DNA of 64,000 bases from Bacteroidaceae bacterium (GTDB taxonomy: Bacteria; Bacteroidota; Bacteroidia; Bacteroidales; Bacteroidaceae). Positions 3,263-32,808 of this stretch are shown here, piece after piece. Under the pieces are notes generated by a model. That model was not told the origin of the DNA. It saw only the letters and a program-made list of their open reading frames with translations, and did no database searches. Location: NCBI GenBank assembly GCA_017548075.1, contig JAFYNL010000034.1, positions 24,191-88,190 on the forward strand, read 5' to 3'. The position numbers were made by a program, and so were the translations under genes. Positions within the stretch are counted from its first letter, which is position 1. Each line of letters begins with the position of its first letter.

Positions 3263-3297
3263 TATGGACTATGAACTATGAATTATGAACTTTTTTT
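3263..3297. repeat. Heptamer block (ttatgga ctatgaa ctatgaa ttatgaa ctttttt)
   Basis: Read directly; lies in the divergent intergenic region. Confidence 0.75.
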
Positions 3298-12023: not shown

Positions 12024-12079
12024 AGATTAGAGATTAGGGATTAACTATCTTTCTTAACTCTTAATTCTTAACTCTTAAT
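12024..12079. repeat. Two adjacent heptamer blocks (agattag agattag ggattaa; ctatctt tcttaac tcttaat tcttaac tcttaat)
   Basis: Read directly in the exbB downstream spacer. Confidence 0.75.
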
Positions 12080-13724: not shown

Positions 13725-13767
13725 ATGTTACAACAGGACACATCTTCCAACTAGGCTCAGTTAAAAT

Positions 13768-13855
13768 GCAAACGTAACACGTTATGATTGCAAACGTAAC
13801 ACGTTAAGTTTGCCAACGTAACACGTTAAGTTTGGAAACTTCACAGGCGATGTTT
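13768..13855. repeat. Array of ~4 tandem 22-bp units (gcaaacgtaacacgttaagttt, forward orientation)
   Basis: gcaaacgtaacacgttatgatt / gcaaacgtaacacgttaagttt / gccaacgtaacacgttaagttt / ggaaacttcacaggcgatgttt (decaying). Confidence 0.9.
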
Positions 13856-13966: not shown

Positions 13967-13974
13967 TAGCTTTG
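13967..13974 (+). promoter_or_regulatory. -7 promoter box (tagctttg) for the first cluster operon
   Basis: 44 nt upstream of the ATG at 14019. Confidence 0.5.
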
Positions 13975-14018: not shown

Positions 14019-15122
14019 ATGAATCTTTTCCCTGACTTAAAGCGGAGATACACTTCCGAACAACTCTCTGCACGCGAGGCTCAGCGGCAGGCAGAGTTCA
14101 TTGCATGGGGACCAATCGTGTTCCAAGTCTCAAGGCTGATGCTCAAATTCGGCATCCTCGAATTGCTAAGAGACAGTAGCGACGGACTCACAGAAACTGA
14201 GGTTGTAGAGAAGACTGGGCTCTCCCAGTATGCCGTGAAGTGTTTGCTCGAGGCTTCGCTCAGCATCGGTACTGTGCTCATCAACACTGAGACCGACCGT
14301 TACACCATTTCCAAGACGGGATGGTTCCTACTGAACGACCCTGCGACAAAGGTGAACATCGACTTCAATCACGATGTCAACTACCTCGGATGGTTCAACC
14401 TCGAGGAAGCGTTAAAGGAAGGTCGACCTGCAGGATTGAAGCATTTTGGCGGCTGGACAACAATTTACGAGGGACTTTCCAGCCTTCCTAAACAAGTGCA
14501 GGACAGTTGGTTCGGCTTCGACCACTTCTATAGCGACTCCTCTTTCCCTGAGGCTCTGCGGATTGTCTTTGCCGAGCACTTTGTCCGCTCGCTTTATGAT
14601 GTGGGCGGGAATACAGGCAAGTGGGCACTCAAGTGTGTAGAGTACGACCAAGATGTGGAAGTAACCGTCCTCGACCTTCCGCAGCAGATTGAGACGATGC
14701 AGAAGAACATCGCAGGAAAGCAAGGAGAAAAACGCATCAAAGGCTACGGCATCAACTTGCTCGACAAAGAGGCTCATTTCCCAAAGAGAGAAGGTGGGCT
14801 CGATGCCATCTGGATGTCGCAGTTCCTCGATTGCTTCAGCCCTGAAGAGATTGTCAGCATCCTGAATCGTGCAAAAGAAGTGATGACAAGCGACACACGA
14901 CTCTTCATCATGGAAACCTTCTGGGACCGTCAGCGCTTTGAACCTGCAGCCCTATGTCTTACGATGACAAGCCTCTACTTCACGGCACTTGCCAACGGAA
15001 ACAGCAAGATGTACCATTCCGATGATATGAGGCAGTTTGTTCTGCAATCGGGACTGGAGATAGAAGCCATCTACGACGGTTTAGGGCAAGGACATAGCAT
15101 CATGGTTTGCAAACTGAAATAA
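14019..15122 (+). CDS. Class I SAM-dependent O-methyltransferase (COMT/Methyltransf_2 type with an N-terminal winged-helix dimerisation domain)
   Basis: 367 aa with SAM motif I LYDVGGNTGKWA. Architecture matches the methyltransferases of aryl-polyene/type II PKS clusters. Confidence 0.8.
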   Translation: MNLFPDLKRRYTSEQLSAREAQRQAEFIAWGPIVFQVSRLMLKFGILELLRDSSDGLTETEVVEKTGLSQYAVKCLLEASLSIGTVLINTETDRYTISKTGWFLLNDPATKVNIDFNHDVNYLGWFNLEEALKEGRPAGLKHFGGWTTIYEGLSSLPKQVQDSWFGFDHFYSDSSFPEALRIVFAEHFVRSLYDVGGNTGKWALKCVEYDQDVEVTVLDLPQQIETMQKNIAGKQGEKRIKGYGINLLDKEAHFPKREGGLDAIWMSQFLDCFSPEEIVSILNRAKEVMTSDTRLFIMETFWDRQRFEPAALCLTMTSLYFTALANGNSKMYHSDDMRQFVLQSGLEIEAIYDGLGQGHSIMVCKLK

Positions 15123-15133
15123 AGCGAGTTGAG

Positions 15134-16021
15134 ATGGCAGAACAGAATTGGGCAGGAACAACATACGGCAACAATTGGATGCACAAGTGGCTCATCCGTT
15201 TGCTTCGCTTCATCGACACACGGATTTTGTACCTCTTTGTCGCCATCTTCATCATTCCTGTCTGCCTGATTCTGAACCCAAGCCGAGGCATTGCCTATCG
15301 TTTCTTCCGCAAACGCATGGGGTATGGTAGGCTGAAATCTGCTTGGAAGACCTATGTCAATCATTGCCTCTTCGGTCAAGTTGTTGTGGATAAGTTCGCA
15401 ATGTATGCAGGCAAAAAGTTCAAAGTGGAGATTGAAGGCTACGAAAACTTTGCTCGTCTTGCAGCCAAGAAAGAGGGCTTCGTACAACTGAGCGCACACA
15501 TCGGCAACTACGAGATTGCAGGCTATACACTCGTTTGCGAGAATAAGCGAATAAATGCACTTGTTTATGCTGGCGAAAAGGAATCCGTAATGAGGAATCG
15601 CGACAAGATGTTTGCCGACACGAATATCAGCATGATTGCCATCAACCCAGATATGAGCCATCTCTTCGAGATAGACAAAGCGCTGGAAGAAGGCGAGATT
15701 GTGAGTATGCCTGCTGACCGCATCAGTGGTTCGCCCAAGTTTATTGAGCATGATTTTCTCGGAGCAAAGGCAAGGTTCCCGCTTGGTCCTTTCTCTGTCG
15801 CCACAATACGAAGCCTAGATGCCCTCGCTATAAATGTCATGAAGACCTCACTTACGAGCTATAAGATATATGTTACTCCCCTGCCCTACGACAAGACGAC
15901 TTCGCGTCAGGAACAGATAAAGCAACTTTCTGGGGCATATGTTGCTGAACTTGAAAAGCGAGTTCGGCAATATCCGACACAATGGTATAACTACTTTGAG
16001 TTTTGGAACGAGAATGATTAG
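15134..16021 (+). CDS. LpxL/HtrB-like lysophospholipid (lipid A-type) acyltransferase
   Basis: N-terminal TM helix and an HX4E catalytic motif (SAHIGNYE). The start was taken at MAEQNW; the ORF track begins at 15107. 8-nt overlap with the next gene. Confidence 0.75.
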   Translation: MAEQNWAGTTYGNNWMHKWLIRLLRFIDTRILYLFVAIFIIPVCLILNPSRGIAYRFFRKRMGYGRLKSAWKTYVNHCLFGQVVVDKFAMYAGKKFKVEIEGYENFARLAAKKEGFVQLSAHIGNYEIAGYTLVCENKRINALVYAGEKESVMRNRDKMFADTNISMIAINPDMSHLFEIDKALEEGEIVSMPADRISGSPKFIEHDFLGAKARFPLGPFSVATIRSLDALAINVMKTSLTSYKIYVTPLPYDKTTSRQEQIKQLSGAYVAELEKRVRQYPTQWYNYFEFWNEND

Positions 16022-17654
16022 CGTTTTATCCACCAACATAACCTCGCCTCTTGGCTTCACTACAGAACAGAATTATCAGGCTGTCCTGACAGGAACCTCT
16101 GCTCTGAAGCATTACGAAGGCATGTGGGGACTGCCCGAACCTTTCGCGGCTTCCCTTTTTAGCGAGGAGCAGAAAGCGGCTCTAGCCCTTGATGGATTTA
16201 CGCGTTTTGAGTCTCTTGCCATTCGTTCTGTCCAAGAAGCACTCTCCCATATTCAATTGGATGTTGCTTCGTCGAGAGTCGTTCTCATTCTGAGTACCAC
16301 AAAAGGAAACGTTGAATCGCTCGATAACCCTGATCAAGAGGGACACTATTTCCCATCAAAAGCCGCACAAACTATAGCGAAAGCTCTTGGGATAAGCACG
16401 ATGCCTATTGTGGTTTGCAACGCTTGCGTTTCTGGTCTATCTGCCCAACTGCTTGCCAACAACTTGCTTTCTGCAGGCCTTTATGACTATGCAATTGTGA
16501 TAGGAGCTGAAGTACAGAGCAAGTTCATCGTTTCAGGTTTCCAATCGCTCAAAGCCGTTTCTGATGAGCCTTGCCGTCCCTTCGACATAGAACGCATAGG
16601 TCTTAACTTGGGAGAAGCAGCTGCAACCATCATCTTCGCAAAGACTTCTTCCAAAGAAAGCTGGTGTCTTGTGGATGGAGCCACCTGTAATGATGCTTTC
16701 CACAACATTTCTCCCTCGCCAAAAGCAGACGGTTGCACAAAGGCCATCGAAGCAGTAATGAGGGATAGGGACAAGTCAAAACTCGCAACAATCTGCGTTC
16801 ACGGAACTGCAACTCTGTATAACGACCAGATGGAATCTGTGGCTATTCAGAAGGCGGGACTCTCGGACATTCCTCTCTCGGCACTCAAAGGATATTACGG
16901 ACACACAATGGGAGCAGCCGGAGTGCTTGAAACAATATTGACTATGCGAGCCACAGACGATGGAGTTGTCCTTGGTTCGAAAGGCTTTACAGAGGTTGGT
17001 GTTAGCGGAAAGATCTGCATCAGTAATGAGATTCTGCAAACAAACAAGACATCTTTCCTGAAACTTCTCTCAGGTTTTGGCGGAAGCAATGTGGCGGCAC
17101 TCTTTTCAAAGACAACGGACAACAGACAATTGACAACTGACAAGAAACTCCACAAAGCTCACACAATCAGGTTATCTTCTGAGGAAGGAAAAACTTTGAC
17201 AGACATTTACAAGCAACAAATCGGGGATTATCCCAAGTTCTACAAGATGGATATCCTGACTCGCTTGGCTTTCGTGGCTTCCGAACTCCTGATAAAAGAC
17301 ATGGGAGAAACGCAAGAAGAGCCTGCTATCATTCTCTTCAACCACTCCTCCTCGATTGTAGCTGACAGCCAATTCTTGAGGACAATCTGTGATGCGGAAG
17401 ACTTCTTCCCCAGCCCTTCTGTCTTCGTTTACACATTACCTAATATAACTACAGGCGAGATTGCCATTCGTCTTCACTTCCAAGGCGAGACCTCATTCTA
17501 CATTCTTCCTGAGAAAGACGAGGCCTTGATGCAACAAATACTTGAGGCGACTCTGAACGCGACAAACGCCAAAAGTGCCATTAGCGGCTGGATTGATGCC
17601 GAATCTGACACTAAATTCGAGTGCGAAATATCAAATTACATCATACAAGACTAA
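16014..17654 (+). CDS. Beta-ketoacyl synthase (Cys-His-His) fused to a C-terminal CLF-like half-domain
   Basis: Active-site NACVSG, VHGTATLYND and YGHTMGAAG motifs. After GFGGSNVAALF comes a TTDNRQLTTDKK linker, then a roughly 165-aa domain with FPSPSVFVYTLPNITTGEIAI (Ketoacyl-synt_2-like). Start taken at MISVLS. Confidence 0.82.
   Translation: MISVLSTNITSPLGFTTEQNYQAVLTGTSALKHYEGMWGLPEPFAASLFSEEQKAALALDGFTRFESLAIRSVQEALSHIQLDVASSRVVLILSTTKGNVESLDNPDQEGHYFPSKAAQTIAKALGISTMPIVVCNACVSGLSAQLLANNLLSAGLYDYAIVIGAEVQSKFIVSGFQSLKAVSDEPCRPFDIERIGLNLGEAAATIIFAKTSSKESWCLVDGATCNDAFHNISPSPKADGCTKAIEAVMRDRDKSKLATICVHGTATLYNDQMESVAIQKAGLSDIPLSALKGYYGHTMGAAGVLETILTMRATDDGVVLGSKGFTEVGVSGKICISNEILQTNKTSFLKLLSGFGGSNVAALFSKTTDNRQLTTDKKLHKAHTIRLSSEEGKTLTDIYKQQIGDYPKFYKMDILTRLAFVASELLIKDMGETQEEPAIILFNHSSSIVADSQFLRTICDAEDFFPSPSVFVYTLPNITTGEIAIRLHFQGETSFYILPEKDEALMQQILEATLNATNAKSAISGWIDAESDTKFECEISNYIIQD
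17111..17145. repeat. Heptamer block (gacaacg gacaaca gacaatt gacaact gacaaga) inside the KS gene
   Basis: Read directly; encodes the TTDNRQLTTDK linker. Confidence 0.85.
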
Positions 17655-17656
17655 AT

Positions 17657-17917
17657 ATGGAACAGTTAATCAACGACTTGAAATTACAAATCAAAGAAGC
17701 CCTCAACCTCGAGGAACTATCGTTAGAAGACTTCGACGAAAACGCACCTCTCTTCGGAGAAGAAGGCATCGGCCTCGATTCTATCGACATTCTCGAGATA
17801 ATCGTACTGCTTGAGAAGAACTACGGCATTCGCCTTGCTAACCCGAAAGAAGGGAAAGCTATCTTCCAAAGCGTAAAGACAATTGCTGAATACGTTCAGG
17901 CAAACCGCAAGAAGTAA
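17657..17917 (+). CDS. Acyl carrier protein
   Basis: 86 aa with the phosphopantetheine site GLDSIDILE. Start taken at MEQLIN. Confidence 0.88.
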   Translation: MEQLINDLKLQIKEALNLEELSLEDFDENAPLFGEEGIGLDSIDILEIIVLLEKNYGIRLANPKEGKAIFQSVKTIAEYVQANRKK

Positions 17918-17925
17918 AGGAGAAA

Positions 17926-19686
17926 ATGAGTCTCGCAGTTACAGGTTTCGGCATTATTTGCGCGATTGGAAATGACGCACAAAGTGTTCTTCGTTCCCTT
18001 CAAGAAGGCAGAACGGGGATAGGAGCCATGCGTTATCTGCAATCGAGCCACAAGGAACTTCCCGTCGGAGAAGTGAAACTCTCAAATGATGAGATGAAGC
18101 GAATGCTCGGACAGGATGAGAAGTCCATCATCAGCCGCACAGTTTTGATGGGAGCAATCGCTATTCGTCAGGCTTTGGAGCACGCCAATCTTGACCTGAA
18201 AGGCAAGCGAATCGCCCTCATCAACGGCACAACTGTAGGCGGAATGGATATTACGGAGCACTACTTCATGCAGATGAAGGAGGATGATGCCCTATTGCCT
18301 GTCCTTGAGAAGCACGACTGTGGAAGTTCCACTCGCGAAATGGCCGACCTTGCAGGCCTGAAGGATGCAGAAGTTTGCACAATCTCGACGGCCTGTTCAT
18401 CTGCAGTAAATGCCATTATTCTTGGGTCGGAAATGCTCAAGAACAACGAGGCAGACATCATCATAGCTGGCGGCACAGAGGCTTTGAGCTTGTTCCACCT
18501 CAACGGATTCAATTCCCTGATGATTCTCGACAAAGAGCAATGCCGTCCTTTCGACAAGAATCGAGCAGGACTGAATCTGGGCGAAGGAGCCGCTTTCGTT
18601 GTGCTTCAGAAGCCTGAGAACCTAACAAACGAGCAAAATCCTCTCGCCTACATTCGCGGTTATGGCAATCGTTGTGATGCCTTCCACCAGACTGCTTCGT
18701 CCGAAGATGGTGAAGGAGCCTTCCTTGCGATGAGTGAAGCCCTGAAAATGAGCGGGTTAGAGCCTCAAGACATTCAATATATAAATGCTCACGGAACAGG
18801 GACTCCCAATAATGATGCAAGCGAAAGTGCGGCTATTCGACGAGTTTTCGGAGAGAAAATTCCACCCGTCTCGAGCACAAAAGGCTTTACAGGGCACACG
18901 ACTTCGGCTTCTGGTTCGATTGAGGCAGTCATTTGCATCCTGTCTCTTCTCAAGGACTTCGTGCCCGCAAACCTTGGTTGGAAGGAGCAAGACGAAGCCT
19001 GCATCAAGCCGACGACGGACAACAGACAACAGACAACGGAGAACATTCTTTGCAATTCCTTTGGCTTTGGAGGGAATGATTCGGCAGTTGTGATAAGCAA
19101 AAACGCTAGCCCCTCTAACTCCTCACAAAAGGAGCAGAACCTCGAAGTTTGTACTTTGGGAGAGGCTATTGTTGAAGATGTGGAGCAACTTCAAGAACTT
19201 CGAGAGTTCATTTCTCCAGGCGAGGCCCGAAGGATGGGCAAACTCATGAAGGCTGCCACCATTACTTCGCTCAAAGCTTTGCAGGCTGCAGGAATCGAGA
19301 CTCCTGATGCCATCATTACTGCAACCGCTTTTGGAATGCTCGAAACGAGTGAGAAGTTTATGGTCGATATGTTGGAAAATGGCGAGGAAACCTTGAGTCC
19401 CACCCTCTTCATGCAAAGCACGCACAATACTTTGAGTTCCGCAATCGCCATTCGAACCAAATGTCATGGCTACAATATGACTTATTCGCAAGGCTCCGAC
19501 TCGCTTGAATGGGCACTTCGCGACGCGCGAAGGCTGATAGAAACGGGCAAAGCGAAGACAGTTCTGGTAGGTTTTCACGACGAAGCAACCCCAACGTTCC
19601 AGGAGTTCTTCCGTCGTATGGAAAAGCCCATTCCATCGATGCTTTACTCTCGAAGCATAGTGCTTGGGAGAAGACCTGCAGAGTAG
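17926..19686 (+). CDS. Beta-ketoacyl-ACP synthase (FabF/FabB-like, Cys-His-His) fused to a chain-length-factor-like domain
   Basis: 586 aa. STACSSAVNAI, NAHGTGTPNNDASE, GHTTSASG and NSFGFGGND motifs. The C-terminal ~190 aa carry SPTLFMQSTHNTLSSAIAI, typical of the APE-type CLF (PF13723-like). Confidence 0.88.
   Translation: MSLAVTGFGIICAIGNDAQSVLRSLQEGRTGIGAMRYLQSSHKELPVGEVKLSNDEMKRMLGQDEKSIISRTVLMGAIAIRQALEHANLDLKGKRIALINGTTVGGMDITEHYFMQMKEDDALLPVLEKHDCGSSTREMADLAGLKDAEVCTISTACSSAVNAIILGSEMLKNNEADIIIAGGTEALSLFHLNGFNSLMILDKEQCRPFDKNRAGLNLGEGAAFVVLQKPENLTNEQNPLAYIRGYGNRCDAFHQTASSEDGEGAFLAMSEALKMSGLEPQDIQYINAHGTGTPNNDASESAAIRRVFGEKIPPVSSTKGFTGHTTSASGSIEAVICILSLLKDFVPANLGWKEQDEACIKPTTDNRQQTTENILCNSFGFGGNDSAVVISKNASPSNSSQKEQNLEVCTLGEAIVEDVEQLQELREFISPGEARRMGKLMKAATITSLKALQAAGIETPDAIITATAFGMLETSEKFMVDMLENGEETLSPTLFMQSTHNTLSSAIAIRTKCHGYNMTYSQGSDSLEWALRDARRLIETGKAKTVLVGFHDEATPTFQEFFRRMEKPIPSMLYSRSIVLGRRPAE
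19011..19045. repeat. Heptamer block (gacgacg gacaaca gacaaca gacaacg gagaaca) inside the KS-CLF gene
   Basis: Read directly; encodes TTDNRQQTTEN just before the NSFGFGG motif. Confidence 0.85.
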
Positions 19687-19688
19687 TT

Positions 19689-19777
19689 GCCAAACATAAC
19701 ACGTTAAAATGGCAAACGTAACACGTTAACTTTGCAATCATAACACGTTAACTTTGCCAACGACACTAGGGTTGTTT
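19689..19777. repeat. Array of ~4 tandem 22-bp units (forward) separating the two halves of the lipid cluster
   Basis: gccaaacataacacgttaaaatg / gcaaacgtaacacgttaacttt / gcaatcataacacgttaacttt / gccaacgacactagggttgttt. It begins 3 nt after the stop at 19686. Confidence 0.9.
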
Positions 19778-19885
19778 TGAAACATAGCTGGCTTCGTTTA
19801 TAACCTCTGCATGACAAACAAGTAATGATAGGCTCGAAAACGGGCTTTTTTGTTAAGCGGATTTTGTAATTTGAATTTGTTGTCG

Positions 19886-19893
19886 TATCTTTG
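19886..19893 (+). promoter_or_regulatory. -7 promoter box (tatctttg) for the second cluster operon
   Basis: 19 nt upstream of the ATG at 19913. Confidence 0.5.
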
Positions 19894-19912
19894 TAGCCAT
19901 AATTATAATGAT

Positions 19913-20263
19913 ATGCAACTACTACCTTTAGCCGTACTTCAAAGCCTATTGTATGTAGGCGGACAGGTTTTCTTGAAACTCGCCTTAGGCAAAATGGAGC
20001 CTTTCGGCTGGAATTGGCAGTTCTGGAGCTCAGTCTTTTCGAACTGGCAGTTTGCCGTTTGTGGTCTCCTTTTCTGTTCAGGAACAATCCTCTGGCTCTA
20101 CATCATCAAGCATTTCCCCTTCAGCATGGCCTATCCAATGGCTTCGCTGAGTTATGTTTTCGCCATGATAGCGGCAATGTTGGTGTTCCACGAAGACGTG
20201 AGTCTGACGAGATGGTTGGGCATTTTGCTCATTATGGCTGGGTGTTACTTTATAGCGAAATAA
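19913..20263 (+). CDS. Small 4-TM EamA/SMR-like (ArnE/ArnF-like) membrane transporter subunit
   Basis: 117 aa from MQLLPLAVLQ, hydrophobic, with a C-terminal LGILLIMAGCYFI typical of half-size DMT proteins. Confidence 0.6.
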   Translation: MQLLPLAVLQSLLYVGGQVFLKLALGKMEPFGWNWQFWSSVFSNWQFAVCGLLFCSGTILWLYIIKHFPFSMAYPMASLSYVFAMIAAMLVFHEDVSLTRWLGILLIMAGCYFIAK

Positions 20264-20267
20264 GAAG

Positions 20268-20849
20268 ATGAAACGATATCTGTTGTTTACCGTTTACTGT
20301 TTACTGTTTACTGCTTTGGTTGCGCAAGGGTTGAGCGAACAGAAAATCATCCAGAAGATGACGGTTGCGGCTGAGAATATCAAGACCGTTCAATGCAACT
20401 TCACGCAGACAAAACGCATGAAAATGCTGAGTAAAGAGCAGGTTTCGCAAGGCAAAATGTTCTGTCAGCAACCCGATAAACTGCGATGGGAGTACACAAG
20501 CCCGCGTTCGAGCACTCTTATCTTGGACGGAACGAGTGTTCGTCTTCTGAAAGGTGATTCGGATAATGGAAGCCGAAACAAGTTTATGGGCGAAATGGCA
20601 AGACTGATAATGAATAGTGTTGCCGGCAAATGTCTGACCGACAGTAAAGCCTTCCAAGTCTCTGCAAAAGAGTTGCCAACAGAATATATCGCGACTCTTC
20701 TCCCTCTAAAAAAGGAGATGAAACGGCTCTATACCAAGCTCGTTTTGCATTTCGACACGAAACAATCGACTGTAACAAAGGTTGAGTTGCACGAAAAGAA
20801 TGGCGACCAAACCATAATTGACCTGCATGACATCCAAATCAACAAGTAA
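20268..20849 (+). CDS. LolA-like outer-membrane lipoprotein carrier family protein
   Basis: 193 aa. Signal peptide, then F.Q.K....L......G.....PDKLRWEY, the typical LolA-like signature. Confidence 0.75.
   Translation: MKRYLLFTVYCLLFTALVAQGLSEQKIIQKMTVAAENIKTVQCNFTQTKRMKMLSKEQVSQGKMFCQQPDKLRWEYTSPRSSTLILDGTSVRLLKGDSDNGSRNKFMGEMARLIMNSVAGKCLTDSKAFQVSAKELPTEYIATLLPLKKEMKRLYTKLVLHFDTKQSTVTKVELHEKNGDQTIIDLHDIQINK
20285..20319. repeat. Heptamer block (gtttacc gtttact gtttact gtttact gctttgg) inside the signal-peptide codons
   Basis: Read directly; encodes FTVYCLLFTAL. Confidence 0.8.
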
Positions 20850-22332
20850 ACAGACTCTGCGCGAACGAGGTATCTGCGTTGTGATTCCTACATATAATAA
20901 TGAAGGAACCATTGCTGATGTCGTTCGCAGAACGCTTGTTGAATGTTATGATGTTATTGTTGTTTCGGATGGTTGCACAGATAAAACACTCGAGATTCTG
21001 CAGGAAATCGAGGGGATTACCATTGTTTCCTACCCAAAGAATGCAGGCAAAGGAACCGCTCTGAAACGTGGCTTCCGCAAGGCTCTCGAGATGGGTTTTG
21101 CCTATGCAATAACGATGGATGCCGACGGACAACACTTTCCTGAAGACATTCCCGTTATGCTTCAAGCCAATCAAAAGCATCCTGGAGCACTCATTATAGG
21201 CGAACGAAAGGAACTTGAGAAGGCGGAACGAAGCAAAGGAAGCAAGTTTGCGAATGCTTTCGGCAACTTCTGGTTCGCAGTTCAAACGGGCCATTACCTC
21301 AAAGACACGCAGTCGGGCTTCCGCCTCTATCCCTTGAAGAAACTTCATGGGCTTTCGTCGCTCACTTCTCGATACGAGGCAGAACTCGAGTTGCTTGTCT
21401 TCGCTTCCTGGCACGGAACAGAGATTGTCTCCACGCCAGTCAACGTTTACTATCCTCCAACAGAAGAAAGAGTCTCGCATTTCCGCCCAATCAGGGACTT
21501 TTCACGCATTTTCATCCTCAACACGATTCTTTGCGTCCTCGCTCTTATCTATGGCCTTCCGCTTGCAATATGGCGAGGCCTGATGACTTTGTTGCGTTCC
21601 ATCTACTCTCTTCTGTTCTTCATTCTCTCTGCCATCTTTGTGGTAAGGCCGCATGCAAGGCTTTATCTAATGAAAGAGAAAGACATTGAGAAGAGGCGTT
21701 TGGGCTGTCATCGCATCCTTTGGAACTATGCTCGTTTCGTTACACTAAAGCATGGAATTCCTGGTGTGAAGTTTTCTGTCGGCAATCCTAATAGGGAGGA
21801 CTTCGAGAAGCCTGCAATCATCATTTGCAACCATCAATCGCATCTTGACTTGATGACAATGCTGATTCACACGCCCAAACTCGTTGTCCTGACCAAGGAT
21901 TGGGTGTGGAACAACCCAATTTACGGATATATCATTCGTAATGCAGAGTTCTATCCTGTTTCCGAAGGCCTGGAAACCCTACTCCCCAAACTGCACTCGC
22001 TCGTCGAAAGAGGCTATAGTATTGTGGTTTATCCGGAAGGAACTCGTTCGCAAGACTGTTCTGTAGGACGCTTCCATCAAGGCGCTTTCTACTTGGCAAA
22101 GCAACTGAATGCGGATGTCCTTCCTATCATATCTTATGGCGCAGGAAAGGCTTTGCCCAAGAAAGGCAAGTTCCTCCGCAAGTGGCCTATCAGACTTGAG
22201 ATAGACAACAGACTTAGTCCTGAAGAAATGCAGGCATTTGGAAAGACTTCGAGGGCACAAGCATCAGGAATGAGGAAGTATTATGAGAGGCGATATACAG
22301 AGATAGCAAACCGAATGGAACAAGATGTATGA
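20818..22332 (+). CDS. Fusion protein: GT2 glycosyltransferase + TM segment + PlsC-type 1-acylglycerol-3-phosphate acyltransferase
   Basis: 504 aa. N-terminal VVIPTYNNEGTI...MDADGQH (GT2); a central hydrophobic region; C-terminal ICNHQSHLDLM (HX4D) and VYPEGTRS (LPLAT). Overlaps the LolA-like gene by about 30 nt. Confidence 0.82.
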   Translation: MTCMTSKSTSKQTLRERGICVVIPTYNNEGTIADVVRRTLVECYDVIVVSDGCTDKTLEILQEIEGITIVSYPKNAGKGTALKRGFRKALEMGFAYAITMDADGQHFPEDIPVMLQANQKHPGALIIGERKELEKAERSKGSKFANAFGNFWFAVQTGHYLKDTQSGFRLYPLKKLHGLSSLTSRYEAELELLVFASWHGTEIVSTPVNVYYPPTEERVSHFRPIRDFSRIFILNTILCVLALIYGLPLAIWRGLMTLLRSIYSLLFFILSAIFVVRPHARLYLMKEKDIEKRRLGCHRILWNYARFVTLKHGIPGVKFSVGNPNREDFEKPAIIICNHQSHLDLMTMLIHTPKLVVLTKDWVWNNPIYGYIIRNAEFYPVSEGLETLLPKLHSLVERGYSIVVYPEGTRSQDCSVGRFHQGAFYLAKQLNADVLPIISYGAGKALPKKGKFLRKWPIRLEIDNRLSPEEMQAFGKTSRAQASGMRKYYERRYTEIANRMEQDV

Positions 22333-23146
22333 TGAGATGATGCGTGTTTTGCTTTCCATAATAATGCTTTTGAGCGGAATCTCTTTGCTTGCTAAGGAGA
22401 AAAGACTTACTCCATATTTGGCAGATACAGGCAAGCCTTCCACAGCTGTTATTGTGTGTCCTGGCGGTTCATACTGCTGGCATGATATGAAGACAGAAGG
22501 AAGAGAGGTGGCAGAATGGCTGCAAGCAAACGGCATTTCGGCTTTTGTGTTGAAGTACAAAGTACAAGGTATTGTGCCGTATATCACGCATTCTCGGCTC
22601 CTGTTTCGAGGTAATCAGCATCCTGACATGATTAACGACTTGCAACAAGCCATCAGTTATGTGCGAGAACATGCAGAAGAATATAGCATCGATCCTCATC
22701 AAGTTGGTGTGATGGGCTTTTCTGCAGGCGGACATTTGGCAATGCATTCAGCAGAGCAGCCTCTTTCTCGTCCAAATTTTGTTGCAGCTATCTATCCAGT
22801 AGTAAGTATGTCTCATCCTGACACACACAAGCGTTCGAGACGAGCATTGCTGGGTGAATACAGGAAATACAACAAAAAGATGCGCGACTCTCTTTCCCTC
22901 GAAAAGCATGTTCCAATGGATTGTCCACCAGTTTTTCTCGTTAACTGCAAGGACGACCCTGTAGTGAAGTACCATAATTCGGAGCTTTTGGACTCTGCTC
23001 TAACTGCCCAAGGCATTAATCATCGCTACATTCAGTATAGTACTGGAGGACATGGCTTCGGGGCTTCTGACACAAAAGGTTCGGAAGAATGTCGCGCTTG
23101 GAAGAAGGAGTTTATCAAATGGCTTAAAGAACTTGACTTGCAATGA
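22325..23146 (+). CDS. Alpha/beta hydrolase (esterase/lipase type) with an N-terminal signal or anchor
   Basis: 273 aa. VCPGGSY oxyanion region, GFSAGGHLA nucleophile elbow and a C-terminal GGHGF. The true start may be a few codons downstream. Confidence 0.75.
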   Translation: MYDEMMRVLLSIIMLLSGISLLAKEKRLTPYLADTGKPSTAVIVCPGGSYCWHDMKTEGREVAEWLQANGISAFVLKYKVQGIVPYITHSRLLFRGNQHPDMINDLQQAISYVREHAEEYSIDPHQVGVMGFSAGGHLAMHSAEQPLSRPNFVAAIYPVVSMSHPDTHKRSRRALLGEYRKYNKKMRDSLSLEKHVPMDCPPVFLVNCKDDPVVKYHNSELLDSALTAQGINHRYIQYSTGGHGFGASDTKGSEECRAWKKEFIKWLKELDLQ

Positions 23147-25578
23147 TTCTAAAGATATTTGACTTCCTCCGCAAACACGCTCTTGCTCGTTGGATTTCGC
23201 TTCTTGCCATTACGCTGGTTTTAGTAGCGTCAATCATGCGTCTTTCCTATAAAGAAGACATACGAGACTTCCTGCCTCTAAGCAAGACAGACAGGGAACG
23301 GATGGCCGTTTATCAGGACATTTCGGGCATGAACCGACTCTTTGTAGTCTTCGAAAGCAAAGGTGATGCAGAAAGAACTACAGAAGCTATCGACGATTTT
23401 GTTAGTATAGTGGAGGAAAGCGATACGTCAGGTTGGTGCCAAGACTTGCAAGCGACGTTCGACCTCGAGAGTCTTTCCGAAACGATGGACTTCGTTTATG
23501 CGAATGCACCTCTCTTTTTGACAGAAGATGATTACAAGAGGATGGACAGTCTTCTTGCTTCGCCCAACTTCATGGATAACAGACTTGAGGACGACTTGAA
23601 TACCTTGATGTTCCCTTCTAGTAGCCTCATCAGTCAAAGCATCAGTAGCGATCCGCTCGGACTATTTACTCCTATAGCTGAAGAACTGCGGCAATCTCAG
23701 AAAGGACTTCAATTTGAGATGTACGACGGCTACATCTTTACGCCCGATATGTCTAAGGCTATTGTGATGCTCTCCTCGCCTTTCGGCAGTAGCGAGACTG
23801 ACAAGAATGCCCAACTTATCACCTTGCTCAACAACGCAATCAACAGCATACAAGCGGACTTCCCTGAGATAAAGGCACACGTTATCGGCGGACCTCAAAT
23901 TGCTGTCGGCAATGCAAAGCAGATTATGCGCGATAGCATCTTGGCTGTAATCTTAGCTGCAATACTTATCTTGGCATTGCTATTTTATGCTTTTCGCAGG
24001 TTAAAGGACATCGTACTCATCGCTCTTTCCATCTTTTGGGGATGGCTCTTTGCTCTTGGAGGCATGGCTTTGGTGCACGATAGTGTCTCGATGATTGTCG
24101 TTGGCATATCGAGTATCATCATTGGCATTGCGGTAAACTATCCGTTGCATCTCATCAGTCATACCAAACATCAACCGAATATCCGTCAGGCTCTTAGCGA
24201 GATAACCACGCCACTCCTTGTTGGCAACATCACTACTGTTGGAGCCTTCCTTGCCCTTGTGCCGCTTAAGTCTATCGCTTTGCGCGACCTAGGTCTGTTC
24301 GCATCATTCCTTCTTATTGGTACTATTCTGTTCGTACTTGTTTTCCTTCCTCATTTCATACAATCAAAGAGGCAAGTCATTTCCTCGAAAGAACCGCACG
24401 ACTTCCTTAGCAGTTTAGCATCTTTGCAAATAGAGAGAAAGAAATGGTTGGTTGCTTTGGTGACCATCCTTACGCTGATCTTTGGCTATTTCAGCCTTTC
24501 TACCGAGTTTGACTCGGACATGTCGAACATCAATTACATGACTGCGGAACAGAAAGCGGAGATGAAATACTTTGAAAGCATTCTTTCGCAAAATGGAACA
24601 GGAGACACTATTTCTCTGTATTTGCTTTCATTTGCGGAAGACTTCGACAAGGCTCTTTCCCGCTCAGAATCTCGTCTGACTGCAATTGATTCTTTGAAAG
24701 AAACAGGTTTAATTGTAAATCATACAGGAGTTAATCGCTTCCTACCTTCAATGAATGAGCAGGCAAAACGGATAAATCGTTGGAATGAATGGATTGAAAT
24801 ACATCCTCAACTGCAGAGCGACTTAAATACTAAAGCAACAAAACATGGCTTTGCGGGAGACGCTTTTACAGACTTCTCAAATATCATTGAGTCGAAATAT
24901 ACTGTACATTCTTTTGATTACTTTACTCCCCTGACCTCCCAAGTCCTTGCAAATTACATCTCCCATAACTCTAAATCGAGACGCTCCACCATAATAGATG
25001 TCCTTTCTGTCAAGAAACAAGATGTGGAAAAGGTCAAGGATGCTTTTCCAGAAGCCTTTGATATAGCCTCCCTTAACTCGTCTGTCGCTAATTCCCTTTC
25101 TGATGACTTTAATTATGTTGGCTGGGCATGTTCGCTGATTGTTTTCCTTTTCCTATGGCTTTCCTTCCGTCGCATTGAGTTGGCTATCATTTCCTTCATA
25201 CCGATGGCAATAAGCTGGATTTGGATTTTGGGCATCATGTCGATCTTAGGTATCAAGTTTAACATTGTAAACATCATCTTGGCAACCTTTATCTTCGGTC
25301 AAGGCGACGACTATACCATCTTTATGACCGAGGGATGCCTATCGGAATATATCCACAAAAAGCCTGTTCTTGCTTCTTACAAACGCAGTATTATTCTCTC
25401 GGCATTAATAATGTTCATTGGCATCGGAACACTCATCATTGCCAAACATCCCGCATTGCATTCGCTAGCAGAAGTCACTATTGTCGGAATGTTCTCTGTG
25501 GTACTAATGGCATACTTGATACCACCTCTCCTCTTCAAATGGATGATGAAGCATTTCCCCCAAAGATTTAACACATAA
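23143..25578 (+). CDS. MMPL/RND-superfamily exporter
   Basis: 811 aa with two 6-TM bundles and two large loop domains. ATGA overlap with the upstream gene. Position and size match APE-type MMPL exporters. Confidence 0.8.
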   Translation: MILKIFDFLRKHALARWISLLAITLVLVASIMRLSYKEDIRDFLPLSKTDRERMAVYQDISGMNRLFVVFESKGDAERTTEAIDDFVSIVEESDTSGWCQDLQATFDLESLSETMDFVYANAPLFLTEDDYKRMDSLLASPNFMDNRLEDDLNTLMFPSSSLISQSISSDPLGLFTPIAEELRQSQKGLQFEMYDGYIFTPDMSKAIVMLSSPFGSSETDKNAQLITLLNNAINSIQADFPEIKAHVIGGPQIAVGNAKQIMRDSILAVILAAILILALLFYAFRRLKDIVLIALSIFWGWLFALGGMALVHDSVSMIVVGISSIIIGIAVNYPLHLISHTKHQPNIRQALSEITTPLLVGNITTVGAFLALVPLKSIALRDLGLFASFLLIGTILFVLVFLPHFIQSKRQVISSKEPHDFLSSLASLQIERKKWLVALVTILTLIFGYFSLSTEFDSDMSNINYMTAEQKAEMKYFESILSQNGTGDTISLYLLSFAEDFDKALSRSESRLTAIDSLKETGLIVNHTGVNRFLPSMNEQAKRINRWNEWIEIHPQLQSDLNTKATKHGFAGDAFTDFSNIIESKYTVHSFDYFTPLTSQVLANYISHNSKSRRSTIIDVLSVKKQDVEKVKDAFPEAFDIASLNSSVANSLSDDFNYVGWACSLIVFLFLWLSFRRIELAIISFIPMAISWIWILGIMSILGIKFNIVNIILATFIFGQGDDYTIFMTEGCLSEYIHKKPVLASYKRSIILSALIMFIGIGTLIIAKHPALHSLAEVTIVGMFSVVLMAYLIPPLLFKWMMKHFPQRFNT

Positions 25579-25584
25579 CATAAT

Positions 25585-25806
25585 ATGAAAGAACGCATTA
25601 TTGAACTATTGAGTGCTGCCCTGCCTATGGTCGACCTCGAATCAGACTTCCTGTTCAGCGAGTTGGATTCTCTTGGCGTGACAACAATTCTGATGTTGCT
25701 CTCCGAAGAGTACGGCATCGAACTGGAGGCAAGAGATGCGACACCAAAGAACCTCAAGACCATCGATTCCATTGTAAAAATGGTAGAAGAGAAACTAGCA
25801 AAGTAA
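25585..25806 (+). CDS. Acyl/aryl carrier protein (phosphopantetheine-binding)
   Basis: 73 aa with an ELDSLGV serine motif. Confidence 0.75.
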   Translation: MKERIIELLSAALPMVDLESDFLFSELDSLGVTTILMLLSEEYGIELEARDATPKNLKTIDSIVKMVEEKLAK

Positions 25807-27122
25807 TGATTCTAGAAGAAAGAATAGAGTATTTCGCCAAGGTTGTACCTGATAAAGCGGCAGTCATCTGTGACGAACAGACTATCTCCTATTCATGTTT
25901 GTGGAAACACATTCAAGAGAAAGCACAACAAATGAAAGAAGATGGAGTCTGTGAAGGCAAGCCATATGTCTTTTTAGCTACTCAAGATGCGGACTTCATT
26001 GTGACTTATTGTGCCGTTCATGTCTGTGGAGCAGTTGCAATTCCCTTAGAGCGTTCCACTCCAACAGAACGGCAGCAACAAATCATAAACGAGACAAAAG
26101 ACTTTTCCTTCGCTTCAGGTACTAGCGATATCCTTTATACAACTGGCACTACTGGACTTGCCAAAGGTGTCATTATCTCTGAGATAGCATGGCAAGCCAA
26201 TGCGGAAAATCTGATAAACAGGCTTGGTTTTACTTCAGATTTGCTCTTTATCGTATGTGGACCGCTGAATCATCTTGGCAGCCTTTCCAAGATATATCCC
26301 ACTCTCATGATGGGAGGTACATTATATATAATGGAGAACCTCAAGGACCTCAACGCCTTCTTCTCTGTCTTCGAACTGCCTTTCACGAAGTTCGCCACCT
26401 TCCTCGTGCCTTCGAGTATAAAGATGCTTTTGCAGTTCGCTTCAAAAGAGTTGGTTGCTGTCAGTCAGAAGATAGACTTCATTGAAACGGGAGCAGCAGC
26501 CATCTCTCAGCATGATATGGAGTTGCTATGCCAGATACTTCCTCATTCTCGGCTTTTCAATACTTATGCATCGACAGAAACGGGTATCGTATGCAGCTAT
26601 GAGTTTAGTGAATATGGCTGTCAACCAGGGCTTTTGGGCAAGCCGATGAAGCACTCCTCTGTTCGCATCGATGAAAATGGAAGAGTAGTTTGTTCTGGCA
26701 AAACCATTATGTCTGGGTTTGTAAATAGTTCAGACCTGACTGCACAAGTCCTTAAAGGATGTGAAGTTTATACTTCCGACATCGGTTCTCTCGATGAGAA
26801 AGGGATGCTCCATTTGCTAGGACGAAAGGACGATATCATTAATGTAGGAGGTTATAAAGTAAATCCTTCGGAAGTGGAGGATGCTGTCCAAGCCTACGAA
26901 AACATTCAAGATTGCATCTGTATTCCTGCTAAACATATCGTTCTAGGCACAGTACCAAAGCTACTATACGTTCCCAAGCAAGGGCAAGTCGTAAAGCCAA
27001 AGGACATTGCCGACTTTCTGAAAGGACGCATAGAGAGCTACAAGATTCCACTACTCTACGAAGTCGTAGATGCCATCAAGCGCACTTATAATGGCAAACT
27101 CGACCGCAAAGCATATAAATAA
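25806..27122 (+). CDS. ANL-superfamily adenylate-forming enzyme (acyl/aryl-carrier protein ligase)
   Basis: 438 aa. YTTGTTGLAKGV (A3), YASTETG and GGYKVNPSEVE motifs. TAATG overlap with the carrier protein gene. Confidence 0.85.
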   Translation: MILEERIEYFAKVVPDKAAVICDEQTISYSCLWKHIQEKAQQMKEDGVCEGKPYVFLATQDADFIVTYCAVHVCGAVAIPLERSTPTERQQQIINETKDFSFASGTSDILYTTGTTGLAKGVIISEIAWQANAENLINRLGFTSDLLFIVCGPLNHLGSLSKIYPTLMMGGTLYIMENLKDLNAFFSVFELPFTKFATFLVPSSIKMLLQFASKELVAVSQKIDFIETGAAAISQHDMELLCQILPHSRLFNTYASTETGIVCSYEFSEYGCQPGLLGKPMKHSSVRIDENGRVVCSGKTIMSGFVNSSDLTAQVLKGCEVYTSDIGSLDEKGMLHLLGRKDDIINVGGYKVNPSEVEDAVQAYENIQDCICIPAKHIVLGTVPKLLYVPKQGQVVKPKDIADFLKGRIESYKIPLLYEVVDAIKRTYNGKLDRKAYK

Positions 27123-27133
27123 AAAACATAAAT

Positions 27134-29086
27134 ATGACTAATCGTAAATCGTTTAATGCAAAATGGGCATTGCTGCCTCTTTGCCTCTTTCTATCCCTTT
27201 GCATAAAGGCAAAGGATGTGAGAATCGCTTCGCCAAACGGCAAACTTGTGGTAACAGTTAACGACGACGATGGCCTCGCCACTTATAGCGTCACACTGAA
27301 CGGCCAGCCTGTACTGCTCCCGTCAAGACTCGGCTTCAAGGCCGACTTCGGGGACTTTACACAGGGGCTTTCCATTACCAACAGTTCCGAAGGCACTGGC
27401 ACTGGCGAATACCCGATGCGGCAGGTGAAGCAGTCCCTCATCAGCTATAAGTGCAGCACACTCTTAGTCACCTTCCACAACAGCCGCAACCAGGAGATGC
27501 AGGTAGACTTCTTCATCAAAGACAATGACATCGCCTTCCGCTACATCATCCCCCGTCAGCAAAGGGATAATCCCAAGTGCGCCGTCATCTATGAAGAAGC
27601 AACCTCCTTTTGTCTGCCTGACGGCACCACGACTTTCATCAGTCCGCAGATTGACCCAATGAAGGGATGGGAGCGCACCAAACCAAGCTACGAAGAAGGC
27701 TACGCACCCGATGCTCCAATGGACAGACGCTCGGCATACGGTCAGGGATACACCTTCCCATGCCTTTTCCACCTCAAAAACGGCTGGATGCTTATCTCTG
27801 AGACTGGCGTCGGCAGCAACTATTGCGGCTCCCACCTCAGCGACTATAAGGAGGGAGGCTATCAGATTGCCTATCCTCAGCAAGGCGAGAACAACGGCTT
27901 CGGCTCGACAGGAGCACAGATAAGTCTGCCTGGAGCTACGCCCGGACGCACCATCACCGTTGGCGAGACGCTGGCTCCCATCGTCGAGACCACGATTGTA
28001 TATGATGTTGTATGGCCGCTCTACGAAGCAACAGAGAACTACAAGAGCGGGCGCTACACTTGGAGCTGGCTCATCTGGCAAGACCCAAGCGTCAACTACG
28101 ACGACCAGGTGAAGTTCATCGACACTGCCGCAGCAATGGGCTATGAGTTCTGCCTGGTGGACGGCAACTGGGACACGCAAATAGGTCGCGACCGCATCGC
28201 CGAACTCTCTGCATACGCTCAGAGGAAAGGCGTTGCGCTCATGCTCTGGTACAACTCCAACGGGGCTTGGAACGATGCGCCGCAGACGCCGCGAGGCATC
28301 ATGTCGAACAGTATATTGCGCGACAAGGATATGGCTTGGATGAAGAGCATCGGCGTGAAAGGCATCAAGGTGGACTTTTTTGGAGGCGACAAGCAGGAGA
28401 CGATGCGACTGTATGAGGACATCCTCTACGATGCCAACCGCTACGGCATTCAGTGCATCTTCCACGGCTGCACCATTCCGCGTGGCTGGGAACGTATGTA
28501 TCCCAACTACATTGCGAGCGAGGCTGTGCTGGCTTCCGAGAATGTCTATTTCAACGAGGGAGCCGCTATTCACGAACCCTTCGACCTCACCCTTCATCCC
28601 TTCTGTCGCAATGCCGTTGGCACGATGGACTGGGGCGGCGTAATTATGAACAAGTACCTATCGAAGGACAACAAGAGTCGTCATTCGCGCAAGACGACAG
28701 ACGTCTTCGAGATTGCCACTGCCTTCACCAATCAGACCGCCATTCAATGCATTGCCATTCAGCCCAACAACTTGCAGGAGTTGCCGCAAGTGGAGCTCGA
28801 CTTCCTCAAGACCATTCCTGCCACTTGGGACGAAACGCGATTCATCGATGGCTATCCTGGCCGCTATGTGGTAATGGCTCGCAGACATGCAGACCAATGG
28901 TATATTGCTGCCCTCAACGCACAGAAAGAGCCGCTCATTCTGTCGCTCGACATCAATAATTATAATGTAAAGAATCTACTTATAGACAATAGTCAACAGA
29001 CAACAGAGAACAGACCGATAAAGGCCGACAAGAAAGGAAAAGTGAAACTGACAGTACAACCTAACGGCGGAGCTGTCTTGTACTAA
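27134..29086 (+). CDS. Glycoside hydrolase family 97 protein (alpha-glucosidase/alpha-galactosidase type)
   Basis: 650 aa. Signal peptide, N-terminal SPNGKLVVTV...LNGQPVLLPSRLGF, and a catalytic region with GIKVDFFGGDKQ, typical of GH97. Confidence 0.8.
   Translation: MTNRKSFNAKWALLPLCLFLSLCIKAKDVRIASPNGKLVVTVNDDDGLATYSVTLNGQPVLLPSRLGFKADFGDFTQGLSITNSSEGTGTGEYPMRQVKQSLISYKCSTLLVTFHNSRNQEMQVDFFIKDNDIAFRYIIPRQQRDNPKCAVIYEEATSFCLPDGTTTFISPQIDPMKGWERTKPSYEEGYAPDAPMDRRSAYGQGYTFPCLFHLKNGWMLISETGVGSNYCGSHLSDYKEGGYQIAYPQQGENNGFGSTGAQISLPGATPGRTITVGETLAPIVETTIVYDVVWPLYEATENYKSGRYTWSWLIWQDPSVNYDDQVKFIDTAAAMGYEFCLVDGNWDTQIGRDRIAELSAYAQRKGVALMLWYNSNGAWNDAPQTPRGIMSNSILRDKDMAWMKSIGVKGIKVDFFGGDKQETMRLYEDILYDANRYGIQCIFHGCTIPRGWERMYPNYIASEAVLASENVYFNEGAAIHEPFDLTLHPFCRNAVGTMDWGGVIMNKYLSKDNKSRHSRKTTDVFEIATAFTNQTAIQCIAIQPNNLQELPQVELDFLKTIPATWDETRFIDGYPGRYVVMARRHADQWYIAALNAQKEPLILSLDINNYNVKNLLIDNSQQTTENRPIKADKKGKVKLTVQPNGGAVLY
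28983..29017. repeat. Heptamer block (tagacaa tagtcaa cagacaa cagagaa cagaccg) inside the GH97 gene
   Basis: Read directly; encodes DNSQQTTENRP in the same frame as the KS blocks. Confidence 0.85.
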
Positions 29087-31593: not shown

Positions 31594-32778
31594 ATGTATA
31601 TGAGCTATCATGTTGATGAGAATGGATTCTACGGAGAGTTCGGAGGCGCCTACATCCCTGAAATCCTGCACGGCACTCTCGAAGCGCTGCGAGAGCAATA
31701 CCAGAAGATTATCGATAGCGAGGAGTTCTTGCAGGAGTATTATCAGCTGCTTCGCGACTATGTGGGTCGTCCAAGCCCGCTCTATTTTGCGAAACGAATG
31801 AGCGAGAAGTACGGCTGTCAGCTCTACCTGAAACGCGAAGACCTGAACCATACTGGCGCTCACAAGATTAATAATGCTATCGGACAAATCCTCTTGGCTA
31901 AGCGAATGGGCAAGAAGCGCATCATTGCCGAGACGGGAGCAGGTCAGCATGGCGTGGCCACAGCTACTGTCTGCGCTTTGATGGGAATGCCTTGCCGAGT
32001 TTATATGGGTGCTTTGGATGTCGAACGTCAGCACATAAATGTGGAGCGAATGAAGATGCTTGGAGCCGAAGTGTTCCCTGTTCAGAGTGGCAACAAGACG
32101 CTTAAAGACGCAACAAACGAGGCGATTCGCGACTGGTGTTGCCATCCGAGCGATACCTTCTACATCATCGGGAGTACGGTTGGGCCTCATCCCTACCCCG
32201 AGATGGTCGCCAAGCTGCAAAGCGTCATCAGCAAGGAGATTAAGTTCCAACTGCAAGAGAAGATTGGTCGCGACTGGCCTGACTATCTCATCGCCTGTGT
32301 TGGTGGCGGAAGTAATGCCGCAGGAACCATCTATCACTACCTCGATGATGAGCGCGTCAAACTCGTTCTTGGCGAGGCAGGCGGCAAAGGAATGGAGACG
32401 GAGATGACTGCGGCTTCCCTCAACATCGGAACTGTCGGCATCCTTCACGGCAGTCGCATCAAGGTGATGCAGACAGATGACGGGCAAATCATTGAGCCTT
32501 ACAGCATTAGCGCAGGCCTTGATTACCCGGGAACAGGCCCCATGCATTGCAATCTCTTCGAGACTGGAAGGGCGAAAGTCTATGCCGTAAACGACGACGA
32601 AGCACTTCAAGCCGCCTTCGAACTGACGCGACTCGAGGGCATCATCCCTGCTCTCGAAAGCAGTCACGCTCTCGCTTTGCTGCCAAAGCTGCAGTTCAAA
32701 AAGGAAGATATTGTCGTGCTTACCGTCAGCGGCAGAGGCGACAAAGACCTTGCAACTTACCTGAAACATAAAAAATGA
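31594..32778 (+). CDS. trpB: Tryptophan synthase beta chain
   Basis: [11 protein letters not shown] and [11 protein letters not shown] (PLP lysine) motifs. Start at MYMSYHV (31594) or MSYHV (31600). The ORF-track start at 31504 overlaps the terminator and was rejected. Confidence 0.93.
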
Positions 32779-32808
32779 AGAGTGAAGAATGAAAAATGAA
32801 GAATTACT
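32774..32808. repeat. Heptamer block (aatgaag agtgaag aatgaaa aatgaag aattact) spanning the trpB stop and trpE start
   Basis: Read directly; contains the TGA at 32776-32778 and the ATG at 32789. Confidence 0.8.

Follow-up and report, generated by a model that had tools for sequence, protein, structure and literature searches.

The window analyzed here, a stretch of 64,000 nucleotides (64 kb) of contig JAFYNL010000034.1 from a Bacteroidaceae bacterium, carries on its + strand a cluster of 12 co-directional genes (14019-27122), here denoted A to L. The genes were taken from a list of open reading frames (ORFs) and annotated with Pfam and NCBIfam; gene calls on metagenome contigs encoding the same proteins agree with them, and all 12 ORFs are intact. 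Upstream of the cluster are exbB, exbD and a second exbD; downstream are genes for a GH97 protein, a flavodoxin and a SIMPL protein, and the trp operon. A first-pass annotation, which had proposed the same 12 domains and the exbD and GH97 flanks, was borne out by the family matches. Its description of the genes as mostly overlapping was not, since overlaps occur at only 4 of the 11 junctions; the remainder are gaps of 2-11 bp, except for one of 226 bp between E and F.

Gene A (14019-15122) encodes a predicted FlxJ-family S-adenosylmethionine (SAM)-dependent O-methyltransferase with a dimerisation domain (NF053543, 600.7 bits against a cutoff of 560; PF21212 and PF00891), whose DVGGNTG motif is conserved among members of the clade described below. 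B (15134-16021; a 295-aa gene call) is an LpxL/HtrB-type lysophospholipid acyltransferase resembling ApeD (PF03279), with a conserved HX4E motif. C (16014-17654) encodes a ketosynthase (KS) with an intact Cys-His-His triad, fused at residues ~372-546 to a divergent chain-length factor (CLF) of the ApeC kind, and E (17926-19686) a KS whose Cys-His-His triad is likewise intact and which carries an ApeC-type CLF domain (PF13723) in the same polypeptide. Between them lies D (17657-17917), acyl carrier protein (ACP) 1, recognized by Pfam and carrying the serine motif LDSID. F (19913-20263) is a small EamA or ArnE-ArnF-like membrane protein (PF00892, PF10639; ArnE E 2e-13 and ArnF E 5e-11, both below cutoff) and a candidate flippase subunit for a lipid-linked sugar.

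The second half of the cluster begins with G (20268-20849), a predicted periplasmic carrier of the LolA2 type known from flexirubin loci and similar to ApeL (NF053544, 164 bits against a cutoff of 125; PF03548). H (20827-22332) is an ApeJ-like fusion of a GT2 glycosyltransferase, of the kind acting on polyprenyl-phosphate sugars, with a PlsC acyltransferase, in which DxD, HX4D and PEGTR are conserved. I (22337-23146), whose last 4 bp overlap the start of J, encodes a putative secreted alpha/beta hydrolase with a signal peptide, similar to BD-FAE and acetylxylan esterases; it is found only in Prevotella-side clusters, its position differs between loci, and its role in the pathway is uncertain. 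J (23143-25578) is an ApeM-like MMPL/RND exporter (PF03176), which matched the HAE3 and HpnN models below cutoff, K (25585-25806) is ACP 2 with the serine motif LDSLG, and L (25806-27122) is a short, ApeH-like adenylate-forming enzyme (PF00501, PF13193) with a conserved P-loop.

The last ~175 residues of C were the sole sizeable unassigned stretch in the cluster proteins, and the first-pass annotation had treated C as a plain KS and E as a KS-CLF. Profile comparisons upheld the assignment of E and revised that of C. For the KS part of C, ApeO (6qsp_A) was the top match among solved structures. The C-terminal profile of E scored best with two ApeC CLFs, 6qsp_B from Xenorhabdus (E 1e-8) and 7f28_A from Acinetobacter (E 6e-6). 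The corresponding profile of C could be aligned to the E profile across 122 columns (hhalign probability 85.7%, E 5.5e-6) and weakly resembled the CLF chain 6kxd_B. AlphaFold2 modelling of C from a 47-sequence alignment of close homologues gave a poor structure (mean pLDDT 46.6), so the CLF call rests on the profile comparisons. By these comparisons C and E are both assigned as KS-CLF fusions of the ApeO-ApeC type. It follows that neither hides a ketoreductase (KR) or dehydratase (DH) domain, which the first-pass annotation had considered for the ORFs of the cluster: none carries one, and the unassigned end of C is CLF-like.

We then asked which enzymes are missing. Pfam searches of the plausible ORFs detected no short-chain dehydrogenase/reductase (SDR) KR, hotdog DH, 4HBT thioesterase (TE) or ammonia-lyase in the cluster or anywhere in the 64-kb window. 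Similarly, tblastn of the window with the KR, DH, TE and remaining accessory proteins from a full relative gave nothing at E <= 1e-4, except for the third KS (KS3) of that relative, which matched C and E. Neither Pfam and NCBIfam nor tblastn queries with dh1 and dh2 proteins from relatives revealed a hotdog DH pair, and the B-C and G-H junctions, which are the DH sites in relatives, overlap in the window. The sole Rossmann protein of the window is a 347-aa sugar-type epimerase/dehydratase (56994-58037), 30 kb from the cluster. Among the annotated ORFs of the window there is no FlxA-type aromatic lyase and no stand-alone FabH-type protein (darA/darB), and Pfam detected no cyclase or aromatase family in the cluster. 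When the KR (FlxB) of the related locus L044 was compared with a large protein collection, none of the best 120 matches (at least 70% identity) was on the contig of the window or on the scaffold of its closer relative L088, a weak negative, as the matches listed already reach saturation at ~70% identity. The absence of KR, DH, TE and ammonia-lyase, noted by the first-pass annotation between the flanking genes, thus extends over the 64 kb, and no homologues of apeI, apeP, apeQ or apeK adjoin the locus or lie elsewhere in the window. We used as reference the APE (aryl polyene) core set of Grammbitter et al. 2020, which comprises the KSs apeO/R, the ACPs apeE/F, the CLF apeC, the DHs apeI/P, the KR apeQ and the transporter apeM. 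An ApeO-type KS, an ApeC-type CLF, two ACPs (D and K) and an RND/MMPL transporter (J) are all in the cluster; a dedicated KR (ApeQ) and the DH pair (ApeI/ApeP) are absent.

To learn how this gene content compares with that of relatives, we used an alignment of H to scan a collection with a single genome for each species, which yielded 422 stretches encoding an H relative, and kept the best 80 loci. All 80 are from Bacteroidales (Prevotella/Bacteroidaceae, Rikenellaceae/Alistipes, Paludibacteraceae, Cryptobacteroides and others), mostly from metagenome-assembled genomes of the rumen and hindgut. The gene order was found again across them, and the arrangement is therefore not due to chance. Ten genes (B, C, D, E, F, G, H, J, K and L) are common to all complete loci, and A and I occur on the Prevotella side only. 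Mapping the window proteins onto the loci showed that most of the 80 contain additional DNA at fixed positions. We annotated the extra genes in L028 (Bacteroidales bacterium RGIG1796), whose core proteins share 45-70% identity with those of the window in the same order. Nine genes absent from the window are found there inside the same gene order. Upstream of B are kr, which matches the FlxB SDR equivalog (NF053542, 398.8 bits, cutoff 340), then ks3, a FabB-like third KS, and acp3, a third ACP. A weakly FabZ-like hotdog DH (dh1) and a 4HBT thioesterase (te) lie between B and C; a gene with a weak LolB2 match (lolB2-like) and a FabA-like hotdog DH (dh2) lie between G and H; and two CrtD/CrtI-like FAD desaturases and a 378-aa acyltransferase lie between H and J. 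The comparison of gene order across Bacteroidales that the first-pass annotation had proposed thus places KR, DH and TE inside the clusters of relatives.

Two observations on the ks3 region are added here. The ks3 genes (L008 1109-2329 compared with L028 1223-2446, and other loci) are 73-81% identical between distant Bacteroidales families, whereas their cluster neighbours share ~45-70%, which suggests either exceptionally tight constraint or transfer between lineages. Between ks3 and A, many Prevotella clusters encode a secreted protein of 167-177 aa without any family match (L008 2358-2891, with homologues in L009-L011, L014, L037, L055, L068, L071 and L072); it might be a counterpart of the ApeA lipoprotein. 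We considered the 177-aa ORF at this place as a hidden DH of some relatives and rejected it, since it matched no hotdog family and begins with a signal peptide.

A neighbour-joining tree of the concatenated H, E and C proteins of 68 loci placed the window within one clade, together with 21 species-level loci, all of which lack dh1, te, the LolB2-like gene and dh2. The KR is missing in the clade wherever the upstream region is visible (L008, L009, L011, L021 and L026), exbD or other sequence preceding ks3. The DHs are present in the sister lineage L037 and in more basal lineages. Within the clade, the ks3-acp3 and desaturase-acyltransferase modules have gone several times. The 12-gene minimal form is found in the window, L007, L013, L015, L022 and L045, and an 11-gene form without I in L019. 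L088, which is more closely related (89% identity in C), carries all 12 genes in the identical layout, with the same flanks, on a scaffold of 536 kb. The deletions left clean junctions and short gene overlaps have re-formed, as at B/C and G/H of the window. Together these data demonstrate that the missing KR, DH and TE represent a derived loss in a rumen Prevotella clade, of which the window is a minimal form, and that KR, DH, TE and LolB2 were lost first, followed repeatedly by the ks3-acp3 and desaturase-acyltransferase modules. What is new is that this absence is a clade-wide derived loss with the rest of the pathway conserved.

Partial sets of the reductive enzymes occur elsewhere, and DHs were also lost independently outside this clade. 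L081 and L084 have no DHs. Two Prevotella lineages retain half of the reductive loop: the L073 group (L073, L075, L076, L082 and L083) kept the FlxB KR, the TE and the desaturases and has no DH, and L057 and L074 kept dh1 and dh2, with ks3, acp3 and KR all missing from both locus and flanks. Inserted DNA was seen at two loci of the reduced clade: in L020 (10456-15068) a WYL-domain gene and an exonuclease gene follow H, and J, K and L are missing, and L045 (8603-15495) has a 7.8-kb insertion between H and I, with three minus-strand ORFs of 644, 546 and 1085 aa.

To examine whether the genes that remain are under selection, we compared them with those of L088. Over 4281 codons of the 12 genes, nonsynonymous divergence (dN) was 0.059 and synonymous divergence (dS) 0.641, giving a dN/dS of 0.092, with single-gene ratios of 0.007-0.275; the flanking exb, polyprenyl synthase and tatD genes showed selection alike. 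Few genes of the cluster are as well conserved as A, at 94.6% identity and a dN/dS of 0.058. Comparison with more distant minimal-form loci gave ratios of 0.02-0.15, with dS saturated. All 21 clade members preserve the KS triads, the phosphopantetheine-site serines of the ACPs, the P-loop of L, the GT2 DxD, PlsC HX4D and LpxL HX4E motifs and the SAM motif. In loci that still have ks3, acp3, the desaturases and the acyltransferase but no KR or DH, these genes too are intact, with dN/dS of 0.02-0.14. In L057 and L074, which have no KR, the dN/dS of dh1 and dh2 was 0.16 and 0.27, and in the L073 group, which has no DH, that of FlxB was 0.01-0.11 at unsaturated dS. The low dN/dS ratios and the conserved motifs indicate that the remaining genes are not decaying and rule out a simple relic.

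The first-pass annotation had divided the cluster into two operons. The 226-bp E-F gap contains a 22-bp tandem repeat of 3.2 copies (19691-19761, + strand), a hairpin with a T-run (19830-19847) and a TATCTTTG box (19886-19893), in this order, and in the clade of the window E and F are split by a gap with this repeat. In relatives outside this clade E and F abut or overlap, which makes the division doubtful; the gap, present in close relatives, is an insertion hot spot. Upstream of A are a similar 22-bp tandem repeat of 3.3 copies with the core TAACACGTTA (13767-13839, + strand) and a TAGCTTTG box (13967-13974). The latter box is of the TAnnTTTG type, which we take to be the -7 element of the Bacteroides promoter consensus and which, with six specified bases, is weak evidence. 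The core TAACACGTTA occurs 18 times in the window (up to 1 mismatch) compared with 1.55 expected, and arrays of 2-4 copies are intergenic at 6407-6485, 13767-13839, 19691-19761, 38020-38051, 47977-48062 and 58051-58103; those at the two cluster positions are conserved in the close relatives L007 and L011. A role of the repeats as a cluster-specific operator was rejected, given that at least four unrelated intergenic sites have the same arrays; they could be REP-like elements or sites of a global regulator.

Further features of the window were noted. The GH97 gene (27134-29086, same strand) begins 11 bp after L and may be co-transcribed with the cluster. It is at the same place in L007-L011, L013 and L088, with 46-54% identity, compared with 65-95% for the cluster genes. 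Ten tandem arrays of a 7-bp unit, with ~4-5 copies each, are spread over the 64 kb (797-829, 3263-3291, 12052-12078, 17111-17143, 19018-19045, 20284-20313, 28984-29015, 32774-32804, 59251-59283 and 60609-60642). They are partly intragenic: in the linkers of both KS-CLF fusions and at the C-terminus of GH97 they encode TTDNRQ-like peptides, and one lies in the signal peptide of LolA2. Gain or loss of one unit would shift the reading frame. Unrelated to the cluster, an 830-aa AMP-binding and PlsC fusion (52160-54652, - strand), Aas-like and as such predicted to recycle acyl chains into phospholipids, adjoins an HlyIII-family gene. A plasmid origin was rejected, as a plasmid collection gave no match.

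The reading we favour, tentatively and as somewhat short of probable, is that the cluster is a functional, streamlined descendant of a Bacteroidales flexirubin/aryl-polyene-lipid cluster, for which beta-keto processing is supplied in trans. Its ancestor would have carried the FlxB KR, two DHs, the 4HBT TE, LolB2, KS3 with ACP3, two CrtD-like desaturases and the extra acyltransferase, all of them lost in the rumen Prevotella clade. By analogy with the APE system of E. coli and Xenorhabdus and with the solved aryl polyene lipid, L would adenylate a carboxylic acid, probably aromatic, and load it on K; C and E would extend ACP-bound chains with D as the carrier; and A would methylate a phenolic head group. 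B may put an acyl chain on a lysophospholipid and H may add a sugar and acylate it, after which F, J and G would export the product to the outer membrane. The roles of B and H in anchoring are modelled on APE lipid (APEL) synthesis, where ApeD puts one ACP-bound chain on lysophosphatidylglycerol and ApeJ adds N-acetylgalactosamine (GalNAc), to which it then joins the aryl polyene carried by ApeE (10.1101/2020.12.19.423268). In that system ApeM, ApeL and ApeN move the lipid outward (10.1101/2020.12.19.423268; PMC8253772). The beta-keto steps would most likely come from trans enzymes, either the housekeeping FabG and FabZ of type II fatty acid synthesis (FAS II) or paralogues at unlinked sites. 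On this view the cluster would yield an acyl glycolipid capped with an aryl group. We infer the starter, the trans-acting KR and DH, the anchor chemistry and the destination.

The partial sets described above bear directly on the supply in trans. A DH without a KR has no substrate, and the product of a KR cannot become unsaturated without a DH. L057 and L074, with DHs and no KR, and the L073 group, with FlxB and no DH, therefore imply that the partner activity comes from outside the cluster; evidently, supply from elsewhere is possible in this family. Several points weigh against the supply in trans in the clade of the window. In vitro, the FabG of A. baumannii cannot replace ApeQ in APE synthesis (PMC8041823). 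In E. coli most core ape deletions abolish the pigment despite FAS II, and the mutants reported to keep some pigmentation do not include losses of the KR or of either DH (PMC8253772). ACP consensus and net charge showed no visible retuning in the reduced compared with the full clades. Erosion goes on in some species, as in L020, which lacks J-K-L, and in L045 with its insertion, and the later, repeated loss of modules fits a simplified product at least as well as it fits an unaltered chemistry. Thus the comparative data favour a supply outside the cluster, whereas the proteobacterial experiments speak against substitution by FabG.

These points bring in a different product, which we regard as unlikely although still a serious candidate: the KS-CLF fusions would make a short beta-keto or poly-beta-keto chain (aryl-ketide, pyrone or resorcinol-like), or pass the L-activated acid on nearly unchanged, and B and H would attach it to a glyco(phospho)lipid. 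The KR, both DHs, the TE and LolB2 disappeared jointly when the clade arose, although they had been encoded at three separate places, and the later losses of KS3, ACP3, desaturase and acyltransferase are as expected if the downstream chemistry had become superfluous. The failure of FAS II enzymes to service APE carrier proteins in A. baumannii or E. coli (PMC8041823; PMC8253772) points the same way. The cluster has, however, no cyclase or aromatase. In those loci that retain KS3, ACP3, the desaturases and the acyltransferase without KR or DH, strong purifying selection on these genes (dN/dS 0.02-0.14) suggests that long-chain chemistry persists there, and the KR-only and DH-only lineages imply supply in trans within the family.

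Two further explanations concern the starter and the state of the cluster. If L activated an ordinary scavenged fatty acid, which the KSs then extended, the product would be a plain outer-membrane glycolipid. The best NCBIfam match of L is indeed a long-chain fatty-acid-CoA ligase subfamily (186 bits, below cutoff), and the locus has no ammonia-lyase or gene for a chorismate-derived aryl acid. Yet the score of L against the aryl-acid ligase MenE is almost as high (165 bits), A, an O-methyltransferase of the phenolic type (FlxJ), is strongly conserved, and the full relatives likewise lack an ammonia-lyase, so that the starter was always supplied from outside; we consider such a non-aromatic starter improbable. 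Very unlikely indeed is a decaying relic without current function, in which the missing genes are the first steps of loss. The graded loss series in the clade, L020 without J-K-L, L019 without I and L045 with its 7.8-kb insertion would fit decay. The 12 ORFs are, however, intact in the window and in independent assemblies, the catalytic motifs are invariant, the dN/dS of 0.09 at a dS of 0.64 equals that of the housekeeping neighbours, and the deletion junctions are clean with re-formed short overlaps.

Such clusters are among the most common biosynthetic loci mined in rumen, gut and oral Prevotella. Numerous 'aryl polyene' clusters of oral and rumen Prevotella already appear in genome-mining surveys. 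In the literature we found no chemical characterization of these clusters, in line with the first-pass annotation, which had called their product uncharacterized, and no mention of the missing reductive loop. The clade cannot make a polyene with its own cluster genes, yet it keeps the rest, and the surveys label all such loci 'aryl polyene'. It is conceivable, though we would not call it probable, that the loci of this widespread clade either make undescribed non-polyene aryl or beta-keto glycolipids or have housekeeping FAS II enzymes serving APE-type ACPs. The latter, if true, would contradict the proteobacterial experiments, according to which FAS II enzymes do not serve APE-type ACPs. The graded series (full, KR-only, DH-only, neither, 12-gene minimal) is a natural experiment on which enzymes are needed and on service by FAS II, and the minimal form offers a compact 13-kb construct for heterologous expression.

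The placement in the APE/flexirubin family is made by gene content. The Ape-type assignment of the first-pass annotation finds support in the FlxJ and LolA2 equivalog matches, the ApeO-like KSs, the ApeC-like CLF and the ApeD-, ApeJ-, ApeL- and ApeM-like genes. The apeA-R clusters of E. coli CFT073 and Xenorhabdus doucetiae share with the window ApeO-like KSs, an ApeC-like CLF, two ACPs, an ApeH-like adenylating enzyme, an ApeB-like methyltransferase, an ApeD-like acyltransferase, an ApeJ-like fusion, an ApeL-like LolA and an ApeM-like RND/MMPL exporter, as well as single orientation and tight packing. In contrast to these clusters, the window lacks ApeQ, ApeI/ApeP, ApeK, ApeN (LolB-like), ApeR and ApeG, has KS and CLF fused in one polypeptide, twice, and has an extra ArnE/F-like protein and a secreted esterase. 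Compared with aromatic type II polyketide synthases, KS-CLF and ACP are present and a cyclase/aromatase is absent, which sets the cluster apart from that class.

The flexirubin clusters of Flavobacterium johnsoniae and Chitinophaga pinensis (flxA-Y, darA/B) share with it FlxJ and LolA2 above the NCBIfam cutoffs, the phylum and the kinds of export genes, whereas FlxA, FlxB, FlxF/FlxS, the thioesterases, LolB2 and darA/darB are absent from the window. Prevotella are not known as flexirubin producers. As the APE KR and DH and the flexirubin FlxA, FlxB, LolB2 and dar genes are all lacking, we file the cluster as a reduced variant rather than a regular member of the family. Compared with the full Bacteroidales cluster (L028, and L073 from a Prevotella sp.), the window is without the nine extra genes and shares all 10 core genes in order.

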